From Escherichia coli (GTDB lineage: Bacteria; Pseudomonadota; Gammaproteobacteria; Enterobacterales; Enterobacteriaceae), in assembly GCF_024223415.1 (NCBI RefSeq), contig NZ_CP100500.1: DNA of 64,000 nucleotides, one strand, 5' to 3'. The translations under genes and the position numbers were made by a program. Positions 44,802 to 50,169 of this stretch are shown piece after piece. Below the pieces are notes generated by a model. It saw only the letters and a list, made by a program, of their open reading frames with translations. It did no database searches and was not told the origin of the DNA. Numbering within the stretch: position 1 is the first letter of the stretch; the number at the start of each line of letters is the position of its first letter.

Positions 44802-45533
44802 ATGAAAAAGTTAGTTCTTGCCGCTTTACTTGCTTCCTTTACTTTCGGTACTTCTGCCGCAGAGAAAATCAATTTTGGCGTTTCAGCCACCTATCCACCC
44901 TTTGAATCTATAGGTGCTAATAATGAGATTGTCGGCTTTGATATCGATCTGGCAAAAGCCTTGTGCAAACAAATGCAGGCAGAATGTACTTTTGCTAATC
45001 ACGCGTTCGACAGCCTGATCCCGTCACTGAAATTCAGAAAATATGACGCCGTAATCTCCGGTATGGATATCACCCCGGAGCGTAGCAAACAGGTATCGTT
45101 TACCACGCCCTACTATGAAAACTCAGCCGTCGTGATTGCCAAAAAAGATACCTACAAAACGTTTGCCGACCTGAAAGGCAAACGTATTGGGATGGAAAAC
45201 GGCACCACGCACCAGAAATATATTCAGGATCAGCACCCGGAAGTGAAAACTGTCTCCTATGACAGTTATCAGAATGCCTTTATCGATCTGAAAAATGGCC
45301 GTATTGATGGGGTATTTGGTGACACAGCGGTGGTTAATGAATGGCTGAAAACCAACCCGCAACTGGGCGTTGCGACTGAAAAAGTGACCGATCCGCAATA
45401 CTTCGGCACCGGCCTGGGTATCGCTGTACGTCCGGATAACAAAGCTCTGCTGGAAAAACTGAATAACGCGCTGGCAGCAATTAAAGCTGACGGTACATAT
45501 CAGAAAATCAGCGATCAGTGGTTCCCGCAATAA
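44802..45533 (+). CDS. artJ: Arginine-binding periplasmic protein ArtJ
   Basis: MKKLVLAALLASFTFGTSAAEKINFGVSATYPPFES; 243 aa. Confidence 0.9.
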   Translation: MKKLVLAALLASFTFGTSAAEKINFGVSATYPPFESIGANNEIVGFDIDLAKALCKQMQAECTFANHAFDSLIPSLKFRKYDAVISGMDITPERSKQVSFTTPYYENSAVVIAKKDTYKTFADLKGKRIGMENGTTHQKYIQDQHPEVKTVSYDSYQNAFIDLKNGRIDGVFGDTAVVNEWLKTNPQLGVATEKVTDPQYFGTGLGIAVRPDNKALLEKLNNALAAIKADGTYQKISDQWFPQ

Positions 45534-45583
45534 TTATTCATTTGCCGGAGTGGGCGAACACCCATTCCGGCAAAATCACTTCT

Positions 45584-47065
45584 CTACGCTAATCCCAGGC
45601 GCTGAAACTGCTCTGGCGGCGCATCATTATCTTTCATCAACTGAATCAGCAACGCGATCATCCGGGACTCGATCACATCATCATGAATCGGATGTAGCTG
45701 CTGCGGATCGTTTTGCAGATCAAACAGCAAATGACCAAACTGATTCAACCCCTTATATTTTTCCTGTGCCGGGATGCGTAATACCTGTAACCCTTTGGTA
45801 AAACGAAACGGTGGGGCCAGCGATAAAGCCCGCATCTCATCCACCGGATAGCGGCTGTTCATTTTACAGGACATCAACGTGTAGTTGGCAATATCATCCT
45901 CACGCCCCGGCAGCGCTGCACGCATATACACATAACGCCCATCAGTTACGTTAGCATGACCACTGAAAACACCAAACATCGCCGAGCTGCGTACTGGTTC
46001 ATCGTGACTGACCGTTTTCGCCAGCGGTTGCCCCTGCACATCGGGCGGCACTGGCTGTTGAAAAAAGTCATACAACGTTGGCGCCCAGTCGATCATTTGT
46101 ACCAGTGCCTGTCGCCGCTCTCCTTTTACACCACTGCGCGGGTCCCAGATAAACAACGGATTATTGGCAACTTCGTTGTAATAAGGCATCTGGTTTTTCG
46201 CCCACCAGCCATGCTCACCGAGTAAAAAGCCGTGGTCAGTGCCGACAATCAGCATGGTATCTCGCCACAGATCGTGCTCATCCATCAGGTCGAGAATGCG
46301 CCCCAGGTTGCGATCGCACATCGACACCAGCGAACGATACCGGCAACGGATGTGCTCCACGGCCTCGTCGCTTTCCTGCACCCGGCCACGCGGCCAGTCA
46401 TAATGCGGTCCATCCCAGTTATCTTCATACAAGGAAAGATACTCTTCCGTTGTGTGAAACGGCTCGTGCGGATCAAACGTTTCGACCTGCAATAACCAGT
46501 TATCTTCCGCGTGATTTTTGTGGATAAAGGCACAGCCTGCATCAAACACTTTAGTTTGTGGAAAATCCGCTTCCTGCTGAATATATTCCCGGTTTGCCCA
46601 GTCATGGCGCCACAGACCAGAAACACCGCCACCGGTCTGCTTTTGCGGCACCCGTAGCACCTCGGGAATAGGCGGTTGCGCAACGCTTGCATGCCAGTGA
46701 TCGCCTTCCTGTCCGCGCACAATCTCCCACGAACTGTAGCGATTATGATAATTCCCGCCGCCATCTTCCCAGTAATGCAAATGATCGCTTATCAGGTGGG
46801 TATAGATCCCCGCCTTTTTAAGCAGCTCCGGCATGGAATCGTCAAACGGTTCTAACGGCCCCCACTCCCGATGCAGGAAGTTACATCGCCCGGTATGCAA
46901 CTCCCGCCGGGCAGGCATACACGGCATACTGCCGACGTAACTGTTTTCAAAGGTGGCGGCATGAGCCGCCAGACGTTGGAAATTAGGCGCTTTGGTTAAC
47001 GCATCGCCATAAGGTGGCAGATAACGTTTATTCAGACTATCGAACAGTAGAATAATCGCTCTCAT
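45584..47065 (-). CDS. Cys-type sulfatase (alkaline-phosphatase superfamily), accessory
   Basis: 493 aa; CMPAR (C-x-P-x-R) formylglycine signature within GSMPCMPARRELHTG. Confidence 0.75.
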   Translation of the reverse strand: MRAIILLFDSLNKRYLPPYGDALTKAPNFQRLAAHAATFENSYVGSMPCMPARRELHTGRCNFLHREWGPLEPFDDSMPELLKKAGIYTHLISDHLHYWEDGGGNYHNRYSSWEIVRGQEGDHWHASVAQPPIPEVLRVPQKQTGGGVSGLWRHDWANREYIQQEADFPQTKVFDAGCAFIHKNHAEDNWLLQVETFDPHEPFHTTEEYLSLYEDNWDGPHYDWPRGRVQESDEAVEHIRCRYRSLVSMCDRNLGRILDLMDEHDLWRDTMLIVGTDHGFLLGEHGWWAKNQMPYYNEVANNPLFIWDPRSGVKGERRQALVQMIDWAPTLYDFFQQPVPPDVQGQPLAKTVSHDEPVRSSAMFGVFSGHANVTDGRYVYMRAALPGREDDIANYTLMSCKMNSRYPVDEMRALSLAPPFRFTKGLQVLRIPAQEKYKGLNQFGHLLFDLQNDPQQLHPIHDDVIESRMIALLIQLMKDNDAPPEQFQRLGLA

Positions 47066-47076
47066 TACGCCCTACC

Positions 47077-47397
47077 TTATTGATTAATTAAATGCGGATA
47101 ATGATGCTGAACCACTTCATAAATTTGCTGACCAATAGTTTCACCGTCCATAATATTCTCTATCGGGATCAGATATTGCCCTTGTTTCGGGTCAAGACTA
47201 ACCACATCGAGTAATTTTTTGGAAATAGCAAAAATATCCGCCCAGTCGGTAAATCCGCCGACTTCACCTGCGGCGGTATGTTCCATTTCAACTTTGAAAT
47301 CATATTTGGTCAGCGCTTTTTTAACGACCGTTTGTAACATAACGCTACTGCCTACACCGTAACCACAGACAAACAGAATATTAATTGTATCTTTCAT
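47077..47397 (-). CDS. PTS EIIB component (ascorbate/lactose-type), accessory
   Basis: 106 aa; MKDTINILFVCGYGVGSS with a phosphorylatable Cys. Confidence 0.8.
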   Translation of the reverse strand: MKDTINILFVCGYGVGSSVMLQTVVKKALTKYDFKVEMEHTAAGEVGGFTDWADIFAISKKLLDVVSLDPKQGQYLIPIENIMDGETIGQQIYEVVQHHYPHLINQ

Positions 47398-47418
47398 TTT
47401 TAAACCCTTAATATTTAA

Positions 47419-48744
47419 TTAACCCGCGTAAGGACCAAGATGGAATGTTGCAGCGATAAATTTCAGAACTTCACAAATAGCAGGCCATACGGTTGCCCAG
47501 TCAAATATTCCTGTCCAGCCGACGCCATTTTCAGCAAGCCCGGTTAACGGAATAGCCCACACCGTACCGAAGGTCTGAATAATACCCAGCAAGAACGTAC
47601 AGATAATTACGGAACGGTATCCGCCCATGCGGTTTGCTAATACGCCAATTGGACCGCCAGAGAAAAACAGAGGTACAAAGCCAGGCAATACCATAATTGG
47701 GCTGTGAACCAGTAATAAGATCCCCATCGAAAAAATGGTGCCAAAAGTACAGAAGACGAAGCCTAACGTTGCGGCATTGGGTGAAAAAGGTAACAGCGCT
47801 GCAACATCGACAGCAGGAATAGCGTTAGGAATAAAGCGATCTTGCCAGCCTTTAAACGAACCGTTAATTTCGCCCACCATCATGCGCACACCCTGCAGCA
47901 GAATGACCATATACATGGAGAACTGTAAGCCAAGGTTGATGATATAGATGTACCAGGGCTTGCCTTTCGCCATTAACTGGACATTATCGATACCCGTTGA
48001 TAGCAAGAAACCACCGACAAACAGCGTCATCACAATGGCGATAGCCGTTACGTTATGGTTAAAAATCGCCAGCCACCCGGGAAGTTTCAGGTTTTCAGCA
48101 TCGTGCTTTTCAGGGTCACCAAATTTATGGGCGAATTTGGAGAAAAACCACAATCCCAACATCTGGTTATGAGCAATGGTAAAACCGGCATCTTTGGTAA
48201 CTTTGGCAATGGGCTTAACAATGAGCGTGGTGGAGAACGCCCAGAATACACCCGTTAATATTCCGGCAATAATAATTGATGTAGTCCAGCTAAAACCCAG
48301 CCAAAAGACAATCAACCATAATACCGCCTGAGAATGTGAAACACCGGTATTCCCTGTCAAAAATATCCCTTTGGCACCTGTATACCGACCAAATAATACC
48401 AGCAGCAGGTTGGTAAAAAACGCCAGTACAAATACATACCCGACATAACCAAAATTATCCCCCAATGCAATTTGCGTTGCCGCTTTCATTGCGTAGGAAT
48501 CCATTAAATATCCGTGAACACCATAGGCTTTACTTACGGCTTCTGCTACCGGTTTAAATGTTGCGGAAAACTGGAAACCACCAAATAACACCATCATTAA
48601 TCCCACCATGGCGCTGACCATGCCGGTAATAATTTTTATTGGCGATTTCTTATCAAGGGCATAACCAATACCCACCAGCAAACCAATTAAAATTGCCGGT
48701 TCAGTTAAAAACGTTTGAATAACATCTATGAATTTGGCAAACAT
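47419..48744 (-). CDS. PTS EIIC component (ascorbate-type, UlaA/SgaT family), accessory
   Basis: Polytopic membrane protein; start trimmed to MFAKFIDVIQTF. Confidence 0.8.
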   Translation of the reverse strand: MFAKFIDVIQTFLTEPAILIGLLVGIGYALDKKSPIKIITGMVSAMVGLMMVLFGGFQFSATFKPVAEAVSKAYGVHGYLMDSYAMKAATQIALGDNFGYVGYVFVLAFFTNLLLVLFGRYTGAKGIFLTGNTGVSHSQAVLWLIVFWLGFSWTTSIIIAGILTGVFWAFSTTLIVKPIAKVTKDAGFTIAHNQMLGLWFFSKFAHKFGDPEKHDAENLKLPGWLAIFNHNVTAIAIVMTLFVGGFLLSTGIDNVQLMAKGKPWYIYIINLGLQFSMYMVILLQGVRMMVGEINGSFKGWQDRFIPNAIPAVDVAALLPFSPNAATLGFVFCTFGTIFSMGILLLVHSPIMVLPGFVPLFFSGGPIGVLANRMGGYRSVIICTFLLGIIQTFGTVWAIPLTGLAENGVGWTGIFDWATVWPAICEVLKFIAATFHLGPYAG

Positions 48745-48952
48745 CGTCGGAACGCCCTCCATAAGCGTACATTTCCGTTGTCAATGCATGAACCTTCTGC
48801 TGACGTTAATAATGTCTCAGGAAATTTTGTGTTTCGCTAAGCAATGCCTCTGTATGTATTTGGTAAGTGCACTGTAGTAATCAAAACAGTTCAATTAAAG
48901 ATCTTATTTGATTATTTGTGATTTGATTTGCAAAAATAGAGCAATATATAAC

Positions 48953-48988
48953 CGTGATCGATCGGTTATTATTAATCGATCGATCACG
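48953..48988. promoter_or_regulatory. Perfect 12-bp inverted repeat CGTGATCGATCG-N12-CGATCGATCACG (operator candidate or rlmC terminator)
   Basis: Lies between the PTS operon start and the rlmC 3' end; each arm contains the palindrome GATCGATC. Confidence 0.5.
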
Positions 48989-49041
48989 ATTATTATTTTG
49001 AGTGAATAGTTGTTGCCGAAAAATTTACTGCCGTGATGTAT

Positions 49042-50169
49042 TTAAATTTTTACCAGCAGTGTCAACACTTCATAATGCGCGGTGTGCGGGAACATATCGA
49101 AAAGCTGCACCCGTTCAATGCGATAACCAGGCAGTTCTCGGATATCTTTCGCCATGGTTTGGGCGTTACAGCTGGAGTAGATGATAAAACGCGGTGCCAT
49201 CGTTGAGAGATAATCACACAGCGGTTTACCAATGCCGCGGCGCGGCGGGTTAACCAGCACCAGCTCCGGCACCTCCCCCTGAGCGGTGGCAAACTGAGTG
49301 GAGTCCAGCGCCTGAAATTGCAAACGCGTTAAGCCCAGTTCAGCAGCTGACTGCTTTGCACAGGCAATGGCCTCTGGCGCAATTTCGATCCCGGTTAACT
49401 GCATGTCAGGCGTCGCGCAGTGTAAACCAAAGCCCCCCACGCCGCAGAACAGATCCCACATATGTTTAACCGGCAGCTGTCGTACCCAGTCGCGCGCGGT
49501 AGCGTACAGCTGGCTGGCGACCGCCGGATTAGTCTGGAAGAAACTTTGCGGACGGATCCACAGCGGAACATCGTTAAAACGCTCTGCCAGCGCCTGTTGT
49601 TCGGTCAGGTAGATCTCCGTCTTCCCTTCCATAATCGCCATATGTACCGGCTGAATATTGACGGTGATAACTTTTAGCTGCGGCAATTGTGCCTGTAACC
49701 ACGGCAATGCCTTACGCAGTTGTGCCAGTTTGGTTTCAGAACGCAGTACAAAGCGCAGCATCATGCCGCCATCGCTCTGGCTTTCAGTCAGCAGAATGTA
49801 TTTCAGTTCGCCACGCTTACGCGCCACGTTGTAGGGCGTTAACCCCGCTCGGGCGATAAACGGTTTTAGCGCCGCAAAAACGGGCGCAAATGAGGCAGGA
49901 TAAAGCGGGCAGTCACAAAGGTCTTCCGGTGTGCCGTCTCGATGCAGCATACCGAGCAGTGGTTTTTCAACGCTACCACTCACCACCATTTTGGCTTTAT
50001 TACGAAACCCTTGTTCCGGGCCTGACACCGGCGCGCACCATTCCTCAACCGGAAAGTCGGCGAGCAGATTTTTAAGATCGGCGGTTTTAGCGGAGAGTTG
50101 CTCTGGAATCGGCTGCGTTATCCACTGACAGGAACGACAGCGACCCGCGTCGTAAAGTGCGCACTGCAT
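49042..50169 (-). CDS. rlmC: 23S rRNA (uracil747-C5)-methyltransferase RlmC
   Basis: 375 aa; N-terminal Cys cluster [16 protein letters not shown] and a SAM-methyltransferase fold. Confidence 0.9.

Follow-up and report, generated by a model that had tools for sequence, protein, structure and literature searches.

Introduction

In Escherichia coli, L-ascorbate is phosphorylated at O6 by the phosphotransferase system (PTS) UlaABC (TC 4.A.7; PDB 4RP8, 4RP9, 5ZOV), and the resulting L-ascorbate-6-phosphate is the known inducer that releases UlaR. Thirteen residues of the carrier UlaA are reported to be in contact with vitamin C (PMC6048161). Among the sulfatases of the S1 family, the arylsulfatase/phosphonate monoester hydrolase (AS/PMH) group and the Bacteroides S1_11 N-acetylglucosamine (GlcNAc)-6-O-sulfatases are pertinent here. 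A PTS and a sulfatase occur together in an accessory region of Streptococcus pneumoniae, which comprises a ROK protein, a cellobiose-type PTS, and the sulfatase, and contributes to virulence (PMC3283741). Here, we compare with these systems a cassette of three genes for a PTS Enzyme IIC (EIIC), a PTS Enzyme IIB (EIIB), and a sulfatase, which lies between artJ and rlmC at positions 45534–49041 of a 64,000-nucleotide stretch of an E. coli chromosome (NZ_CP100500.1, assembly GCF_024223415.1; hereafter the window). Hundreds of genomes carry an annotation of the locus, which is functionally unstudied as far as the searchable literature shows and which combines two known kinds of protein, an ascorbate-family PTS and an S1 sulfatase.

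The natural sulfated form of ascorbate is L-ascorbate 2-sulfate, a normal metabolite of human plasma and urine, which is hydrolyzed by the mammalian arylsulfatases A and B. We propose that the three genes form a catabolic uptake module for ascorbate sulfate that feeds the Ula pathway, a proposal for and against which we hold the scales to be level. We offer more tentatively, leaning slightly toward doubt, the wider proposition that gut bacteria (E. coli O157:H7, Salmonella, and many Clostridia and Bacilli) salvage this host vitamin C conjugate by means of a dedicated PTS and a new, strictly cytoplasmic S1 subfamily acting on a phospho-sulfo substrate, with the enterobacteria relying on UlaC and the Ula regulon. 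In any case, the trio is an old, conserved, and uncharacterized module.

Composition of the Cassette and Its Transporter

The interval between artJ and rlmC in the window contains three intact minus-strand open reading frames (ORFs), in agreement with an initial interpretation of the bare DNA letters (the sequence-only reading), which had placed a sulfatase, an EIIB, and an EIIC there:

45584–47065, minus strand: S1 sulfatase of the Cys-type (formylglycine), predicted to be cytoplasmic, of an uncharacterized subfamily (PF00884, E 1e-28)
47077–47397, minus strand: PTS EIIB with the lactose/cellobiose/ascorbate-type fold (PF02302, E 8e-11; phospho-accepting Cys11)
47419–48762, minus strand: PTS EIIC of the UlaA/SgaT family (PF03611, E 4e-97)
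44802–45533, plus strand: artJ, left flank (RefSeq annotation, junction comparison)
49042–50169, minus strand: rlmC, right flank (RefSeq annotation; the variable segment ends in its last codon)

The names of the flanking genes follow the RefSeq annotation of E. coli O78 strain 3 (NZ_CP084096.1), to which the window region is 100% identical. The sequence-only reading had let the locus begin at 45550, which falls inside the hairpin between artJ and the sulfatase gene; the stop codon of the latter is at 45584. The gaps between the EIIC and EIIB genes (21 nt) and between the EIIB and sulfatase genes (11 nt) are compatible with a single transcript. Of the co-transcription that had been claimed, the operon-like layout is thus confirmed, and a shared transcript is what this layout would lead us to expect. 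Within 45534–49041, neither the ORFs nor the RefSeq annotation contain a gene for a regulator, an Enzyme IIA (EIIA), or a sulfatase maturase. The lack of a cognate regulator and of a maturase had been recognized correctly; that of a cognate EIIA (PF00359), which forms part of the L-ascorbate PTS Enzyme II, had been overlooked. The GC content amounts to 37–47% in the EIIB/EIIC part and the region upstream of it, 52–55% in the sulfatase gene, and 48–55% in the flanks.

The assignment of both transporter components to the ascorbate type, likewise made from the letters, is borne out by the Pfam matches listed above: EIIC has the fold of the L-ascorbate PTS family (PF03611/UlaA), and EIIB has the corresponding N-terminal phospho-cysteine. 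EIIB opens with MKDTINILFVCGYGVGSS and carries the phospho-accepting Cys11 within ILFVCGYG; its best NCBIfam matches are the ascorbate IIB and IIBC models, both of which score under their cutoffs. EIIC shares 39% identity with UlaA, and its matches to the UlaA structures 5zov and 4rp8 reach E ~1e-94. It passes an NCBIfam equivalog of its own (NF009550, 964 bits, cutoff 583) and stays below the UlaA equivalog (NF006919, 321 bits, cutoff 380). This shortfall, combined with the replacements H135N, I136T, Q139S, and Q195N (UlaA numbering throughout), rules out that the protein is a UlaA orthologue. Among the 13 vitamin C contact residues, the cassette EIICs keep Y87, H194, R288, D314, and F362 (5/13) and change three conservatively (T86S, I358V, M410I/M). 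H135 and Q195 are each replaced by asparagine in all 33 cassette EIICs, I136 by threonine, alanine, or serine, and Q139 by serine or alanine. Judged from these substitutions, EIIC would keep the UlaA scaffold with smaller side chains and thereby offer room on one face of the pocket. The annotated RefSeq start of EIIC at 48762 probably lies 18 nt too far upstream, the true one being 48744, which yields a protein of 441 aa: a conserved GGAGG (48756–48760) precedes this second ATG, the upstream ATG runs into a stop codon in Yokenella, and the annotation of strain Sakai uses 48744.

A pocket that differs from UlaA at four contact residues would also suit a different cargo. The cassette might handle another anionic ester of a sugar acid or lactone, for example a sulfated or phosphonylated six-carbon acid, in which case the linkage to ula genes described below would reflect nothing but a shared downstream pentose phosphate route. 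We consider this unlikely, for reasons that emerge from the gene neighborhoods.

The Sulfatase

The third protein has the PF00884 domain and the alkaline-phosphatase-superfamily fold of the S1 family as well as its C/S-x-P-x-R-x4-T-G signature, so that its earlier description as a Cys-type sulfatase holds. The formylglycine (FGly) signature CMPARRELHTGR starts at C49 (C49-M-P-A-R-R-E-L-H-T-G-R). In an alignment of 65 relatives, P51 and R53 of this signature never vary and C49 is retained by at least 90%; D9, H200, D277, H278, and K290 are invariant like R53. The position of the Lys-A-x-His-A motif, in contrast, is occupied by a family-invariant D94 with H95 and H97 instead of the canonical Lys-x-His, and a family-specific insert spans residues ~95–160. 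In every relative examined the sulfatase domain begins at residue 4; the first strand of this domain thus stands at the very start of the protein, and a signal peptide is lacking, which places the enzyme, as far as its sequence tells, in the cytoplasm.

An AlphaFold2 (AF2) model based on the alignment of 65 diverse relatives reached a pLDDT of 96.1 and a pTM of 0.95 (an earlier run with 14 close homologues gave a pLDDT of 58 and was discarded). In a Foldseek search the model is an S1 fold, with a probability of 1.00 to many S1 structures. None of the solved structures is close: TM-scores of 0.65–0.68 at 14–19% identity are obtained alike for S1_46, S1_11, S1_7, choline sulfatase, and PMH. In a profile search, the AS/PMH group comes first (4upl, E 7e-51), and the top solved matches of a single-sequence search are the Bacteroides GlcNAc-6-O-sulfatases 7p24 and 5g2v (E 1e-23 to 5e-21); Pfam additionally reports a match to SGSH_C. 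The full signature and the fold, together with maturase genes adjacent to the sulfatase gene in 13 related loci (see below), indicate a true FGly sulfatase. The altered D94-H95-x-H97 motif and the promiscuity of the AS/PMH enzymes, the nearest relatives by profile, are the two features of the enzyme that would fit an ester other than ascorbate sulfate.

The sequence-only reading had thought of a sulfated sugar derived from host mucin. Elaborated accordingly, the PTS would import a sulfated hexose or hexosamine from mucin or glycosaminoglycans, such as sulfated GlcNAc, galactose, or N-acetylgalactosamine, and the sulfatase would release a sugar phosphate for glycolysis or the nag/aga routes. 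The matches to 7p24 and 5g2v and to SGSH_C speak for this, as do the nearly exclusively gut-associated hosts of the cassette and the precedent of the pneumococcal accessory region. However, the structural matches are equally weak across many S1 subfamilies, the profile search puts the AS/PMH group above the GlcNAc-6-sulfatases, and the carrier belongs to the ascorbate family and not to the Glc, Man, or Lac families that carry hexoses and hexosamines. Moreover, it follows from general PTS chemistry that a 6-O-sulfated sugar cannot receive a phosphate at O6. Taken together with the neighborhoods of the related loci, these points make a mucin or glycosaminoglycan sugar quite improbable to us.

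Related Loci and the Proposed Pathway

The surroundings of related sulfatase genes were surveyed in 64 species-representative loci. Sulfatases with 79–87% identity occur in Salmonella, Enterobacter, Kluyvera, Leclercia, Silvania, and Yokenella, and homologues with 62–67% identity in gut Firmicutes (Lachnospiraceae, Clostridium porci, Blautia, Dielma, Erysipelotrichaceae) as well as in Bacillaceae and Streptococcus pacificus. Nearly all sulfatases with at least 60% identity are encoded directly downstream of the same IIC–IIB pair, and the EIIC of C. porci passes the same NCBIfam equivalog as that of E. coli; the PTS is missing from the loci of remoter relatives (46–57% identity; Paenibacillus, actinobacteria, SAR86, Brachyspira). 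As a rule, the cassette is preceded by a DeoR-family gene, and an EIIA_2 gene is found downstream, upstream, or not nearby. The top-scoring model for the cassette-linked EIIAs is that of either the ascorbate or the mannitol EIIA, and the EIIA of C. porci is 40% identical to UlaC. Two metagenomic proteins (P0044 and P0083) are fusions of the sulfatase with EIIA_2, which we read as the strongest single sign that the enzyme may work with the PTS inside the cell. A gene for an anaerobic sulfatase-maturating enzyme (anSME; TIGR03942, 371 bits, cutoff 349) is adjacent in 12 loci, among them that of Leclercia, and a gene for a formylglycine-generating enzyme (PF03781, 269 bits) adjoins the cassette of Neobacillus.

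Ascorbate catabolism genes lie within 8 kb of the sulfatase gene in eight loci, six of which include the lactonase UlaG. Neobacillus niacini has the order IIA–IIC–IIB–sulfatase–UlaG–IIB–UlaD–UlaE–UlaF, in which UlaG (653 bits, cutoff 306), UlaD (327, cutoff 250), UlaE (442, cutoff 200), and UlaF (362, cutoff 257) are all recognized by their NCBIfam models. UlaG, UlaD, UlaE, and UlaF also accompany the cassette in Bacillus sp. SD088, and UlaG, UlaE, and UlaF do so in the metagenome-assembled genomes of an Oscillospiraceae bacterium and a Clostridium; two PTS-less Clostridium loci combine the sulfatase with UlaG and UlaF, and UlaF is present at two further loci. The UlaG equivalog is passed in all four loci tested (540–663 bits, cutoff 306), and the UlaG assignments in L033 and L038 are tblastn matches alone. 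A survey of ula regulons mentions, without commenting on it, a sulfatase inside a duplicated regulon of Sebaldella (PMC3219644), which may belong to the present sulfatase family.

Clustering of the neighbors revealed no other recurring catabolic gene; only regulator, EIIA, and maturase genes recur with the cassette. For the mucin or glycosaminoglycan sugar this is unfavorable, since a glycosidase, deacetylase, or deaminase stands beside the cassette in none of the ~44 close loci and the catabolic neighbors that do recur are genes of the L-ascorbate pathway. Hence, while the logic of uptake followed by desulfation put forward by the sequence-only reading is supported by the missing signal peptide and the EIIA fusions, the mucin-derived substrate is not. 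The other anionic ester finds some encouragement in the PTS-less Clostridium loci, which additionally carry genes for a transketolase, a TIM-barrel isomerase, and a uroporphyrinogen decarboxylase (URO-D)-like protein. It is disfavored by UlaG, the most ascorbate-6-phosphate-specific enzyme of the pathway, which passes its equivalog in the four loci tested and is matched by tblastn in two others, by the 13 adjacent maturase genes, which are typical of sulfatases, and by the lack of any neighbor in these loci that would point to an alternative natural substrate.

For the sulfated ascorbate that we prefer, the following sequence of events can be envisaged. Phosphate would travel by way of EI and HPr to an ascorbate/mannitol-class EIIA (presumably UlaC in E. 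coli), from which it would pass to Cys11 of EIIB and on to the substrate during its passage through EIIC. EIIB and EIIC, the latter a UlaA-family carrier with a remodeled pocket, would thereby take up a sulfated relative of L-ascorbate and phosphorylate it; the likeliest candidate is L-ascorbate 2-sulfate, phosphorylated at O6 in the manner of ascorbate. The cytoplasmic FGly sulfatase would then generate sulfate and L-ascorbate-6-phosphate, and the resident enzymes UlaG, UlaD, UlaE, and UlaF would convert the latter to D-xylulose-5-phosphate. The enterobacterial cassette would have lost two companions of the Firmicutes cassettes, the DeoR regulator and the EIIA. As it has neither an EIIA nor a maturase of its own, it must borrow an EIIA of the mannitol/ascorbate class and the maturation activity of the host; likewise, since no catabolic gene of its own recurs with the cassette, the desulfated, phosphorylated product must enter a pathway that the host already has. 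The E. coli host would be able to supply the missing parts, because ulaG–ulaABC and aslB are each encoded in 5425/5426 complete genomes. Furthermore, E. coli has a way of maturing Cys-type sulfatases that requires neither AslB nor YdeM. With ascorbate-6-phosphate as both inducer and product, a small flux would suffice for the cassette to induce the genes on which it depends.

Some loci of the survey have features of their own. In Yokenella (L021, 3815–6006), an OmpR-type response regulator gene and a 506-aa ORF, which we take to be the histidine kinase partner of the regulator, are situated between rlmC and the cassette; three Clostridium cassettes are accompanied by a related response regulator. 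The anSME gene of Leclercia (L019, 2434–3546) is ~2.8 kb upstream of the EIIC gene. Dielma fastidiosa and Clostridia bacterium UC5.1-1C12 (L023 and L050) possess two tandem IIC–IIB–sulfatase units, each followed by a regulator that is SorC-type by eye, and the second unit is far more divergent (EIIC 37% identical).

Distribution and History of the Locus

Among 5426 complete E. coli genomes, 566 (about a tenth) contain the cassette and 4860 do not. It is always chromosomal, single-copy, and located at the artJ–rlmC site; strains of phylogroup E/O157 and of the sequence type (ST) 69 kind retain it, whereas K-12, ST131, and most others are without it. Two haplotypes can be distinguished, with no intermediates: 411 genomes (O157:H7, O145, O78, and others) are at least 99% identical to the window, and 155 (e.g., ST69) are ~90.9% identical. 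Compared with O157:H7 genomes, the identity amounts to 98.8% over 45400–49200 and 99.7% over the cassette alone; in Sakai, the three genes are ECs_0940 to ECs_0942. The two haplotypes are ~9% apart (45584–48762 compared with L003, L014, L015, and L017), and their dS is 0.42–0.77 in the cassette genes versus 0.10–0.17 in the flanking genes. Each is nearer to a different non-coli Escherichia species: the haplotype of the window is 99.0% identical to Escherichia sp. E1V33, and the other has its nearest relative in Escherichia sp. MOD1-EC7003 (94.8%). This affinity and the high dS suggest that ancient polymorphism or exchange between species was also involved.

The sequence-only reading had regarded the cassette as inserted into a region that is contiguous in K-12. 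The second half of this statement is correct, inasmuch as artJ and rlmC are separated by only 198 bp in a K-12-type strain; the first half is probably backwards. With its gene order and orientation unchanged, the trio also occupies the rlmC–artJ interval of Salmonella enterica, S. arizonae, and S. diarizonae, of Yokenella regensburgei, and of three Escherichia species other than E. coli. An island would be expected to be absent from the same site in outgroups, yet here the outgroups are occupied. The identities to the Salmonella proteins (EIIC 95%, EIIB 83–84%, sulfatase 85–87%) are in step with those of the flanks (RlmC 88%, ArtJ 91%), and the cassette edges show no flanking direct or inverted repeats, integrase, insertion sequence (IS), tRNA target, or mobility gene. 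A horizontally inserted island is disfavored by the occupied outgroups and the missing mobility scars. Because of the same-site trio in relatives, the divergence in step with the flanks, and the lack of mobile-element scars, loss from most E. coli, and not insertion, is probably the simpler history.

The variable segment starts right after the artJ stop codon and ends within the last rlmC codon, so that the C-terminus of RlmC varies: it reads LLVKI in the window, whereas the second haplotype has LLVKM, the three empty-site strains that were compared have LLVKQ, and Salmonella has LLYRL. The empty sites contain three different spacers:

L004, 1633–1830: empty site
L005, 1635–1662: empty site
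L006, 1635–1808: empty site

The spacer comprises 198 bp in the K-12-type strain, 28 bp in FDAARGOS_1287 and uk_P46212, and 174 bp in strain A12. The 28-bp spacer is one hairpin shared by the two strains, and in K-12 the hairpin sequence flanks an inserted element on both sides; the 174-bp and 198-bp spacers look as if they contain an element of the repetitive extragenic palindromic/bacterial interspersed mosaic element (REP/BIME) type.

In some E. coli lineages the locus is decaying: truncated sulfatases form sizeable clusters (P0076, 323 aa; P0031, 378 aa; P0036, 355 aa; 97–99% identity), and an IS1 element sits inside the cassette of strain ECNB21-M121 (hit H90). It might therefore be asked whether the E. 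coli locus as a whole is a functionless remnant, which cannot work without an EIIA and a regulator of its own and is on its way to being lost, as these truncations, the IS1 insertion, and its absence from 4860 of the 5426 genomes could be taken to mean. Yet the ORFs are intact in the window and across the two haplotypes despite their dS, and dN/dS is 0.009–0.047 for the three genes, both in the comparison of the E. coli haplotypes and in that with Salmonella as far as dS was estimable (the EIIB pair with Salmonella is saturated and gives no estimate). Such values show that the locus is maintained by strong purifying selection where it is kept. In addition, the layout without EIIA and regulator persists in Salmonella, Yokenella, Leclercia, and Silvania, an adjacent EIIA is missing in many Firmicutes cassettes as well, and the core of the putative promoter is conserved across genera. 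We therefore consider a mere remnant highly improbable.

In Salmonella LT2, the EIIC orthologue is STM0884, annotated as "ulaA," which has an intragenic sigma-54 binding site (PMC3844500); STM0884 is also tabulated beside genes of Salmonella pathogenicity island 2 (SPI-2) in a transcription profiling of avirulent Salmonella regulator mutants (PMC2639726). A second strain-variable spot of the window lies between ybjP and ybjQ, ~5 kb away from the cassette. It holds a pentapeptide-repeat pseudogene (39059–40294; C-terminus missing, annotated as incomplete), and in O157:H7 Sakai the hypothetical genes ECs_0949 and ECs_0950 occupy this place.

Intergenic Elements

The noncoding parts of the locus contain the following elements:

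48869–48936, minus strand: candidate promoter/operator core upstream of the EIIC gene (cross-genus conservation; AATCA(A/C)A repeats)
48914–48935, minus strand: CRP-like site TGCAA-N6-TCACA, inside the conserved core
48871–48876, minus strand: candidate −10 element TACAGT, inside the conserved core
48953–48988, no strand assigned: palindrome with a 16-bp stem and four GATC (Dam) sites, just downstream of the rlmC stop codon
45541–45574, no strand assigned: hairpin between the convergent artJ and sulfatase stop codons (folding energy)

The upstream region of the cassette measures 279 bp in the window, and 48869–48936 is the only block in it that is conserved among E. coli, Salmonella, Yokenella, Leclercia, and Silvania. 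We interpret this block as a putative promoter that may be controlled by CRP or UlaR. If the candidate −10 element is taken at face value, the CRP-like site would be centered ~60 bp upstream of the predicted transcription start. Scans for sigma-70 and terminator consensus sequences returned sites no more numerous than in shuffled sequences, and a search of the leader for Rfam riboswitches and known RNAs gave STnc550 as the sole match (E 0.11), far under the gathering score.

The palindrome at 48953–48988 (−28.5 kcal/mol, z −5.7) is kept in Salmonella with both arms changed (CGTG/CACG to CATG/CATG) and is missing in species whose cassette does not adjoin rlmC. It is probably a 3′ hairpin of rlmC that insulates the cassette promoter; alternatively, it may serve as a methylation-sensitive protein site. 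The hairpin at 45541–45574 is stable on both strands (plus strand −25.4 kcal/mol, z −7.4; minus strand −23.0 kcal/mol, z −3.5). As neither strand has a 3′ U-tract, it is not a canonical intrinsic terminator.

Discussion

The assignment of the cassette to ascorbate sulfate has to be weighed against a number of points that speak to the contrary. With regard to the enzyme, the replacement of Lys-x-His by D94-H95-x-H97 means that the chemistry may differ in detail, and with promiscuous AS/PMH enzymes as the nearest solved relatives by profile, the substrate may be a non-sulfate ester. With regard to the neighborhoods, ula genes are found within 8 kb in only 8 of the ~44 close loci and most cassettes stand alone; the UlaG of the PTS-less Clostridium loci would depend on a phosphorylated substrate, yet no kinase is seen there. 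The regulatory evidence is equally restrained: the similarity of the cassette promoter to the ulaA promoter (one matching 10-mer and two colinear 14-mers) is not significant in composition-matched resampling (P ~0.05–0.1) and leaves a shared UlaR operator unproven, and the cassette-linked DeoR regulators were rejected as UlaR orthologues, the GlpR, AgaR, and SrlR models scoring higher. The loss of the locus from ~90% of E. coli and the existence of truncated sulfatases imply that its value is conditional. Finally, we found no functional study of or experiment on the locus in the searchable literature.

Should the assignment to ascorbate sulfate nevertheless be true, it would provide a function for a conserved, unstudied operon of O157:H7 (ECs0940–0942) and Salmonella (STM0884 and two downstream genes), would identify a vitamin C conjugate of host origin as a nutrient that sets E. 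coli lineages apart, and would add a PTS-coupled intracellular branch to a bacterial sulfatase biology that is now dominated by exported Bacteroides enzymes. The cassette would also be a clean case of a module that relies on an EIIA, a maturase, and a downstream pathway encoded elsewhere. Even if the substrate were guessed wrongly, an ancestral and repeatedly lost locus with two ancient haplotypes matters wherever it is used as an "island" marker.

Compared with known systems, the cassette is closest to UlaABC and the Ula regulon on the side of transport. It has the EIIC fold family and the EIIB type in common with them, with five of the 13 vitamin C contact residues identical and three conservatively changed, and in several Firmicutes it is located in or beside ulaG/D/E/F operons. 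It differs in lacking EIIA, UlaR, and any catabolic enzyme, in the addition of a sulfatase, and in the smaller residues at H135, I136, Q139, and Q195. On the side of the enzyme, the S1 AS/PMH group (SpAS1, SpAS2, RlPMH, BcPMH) and the Bacteroides S1_11 GlcNAc-6-O-sulfatases share with the cassette sulfatase the fold, the FGly signature C-x-P-x-R, and, outside the Lys-A-x-His-A position, the Asp, His, Lys, and Arg residues for metal binding and catalysis. Unlike them, the cassette sulfatase, which has 14–19% identity and TM-scores of 0.65–0.68 to any solved structure, is predicted to be cytoplasmic and has the D94-H95-x-H97 motif and the insert at residues ~95–160; moreover, it is tied to a PTS and not to a polysaccharide utilization locus or an exported glycan-degrading system. 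The mammalian arylsulfatases A and B are S1 enzymes that act on the proposed substrate class, which makes the chemistry feasible for this fold; in contrast to the cassette sulfatase, they are lysosomal, glycosylated, of broad specificity, and uncoupled from transport. The accessory region of S. pneumoniae resembles the cassette in being strain-variable, in combining a PTS with a putative sulfatase, and in belonging to a host-associated bacterium. This likeness is one of gene content, and the pneumococcal PTS is of the lactose/cellobiose type and accompanied by a regulator, whereas that of the cassette is of the ascorbate type and has none.

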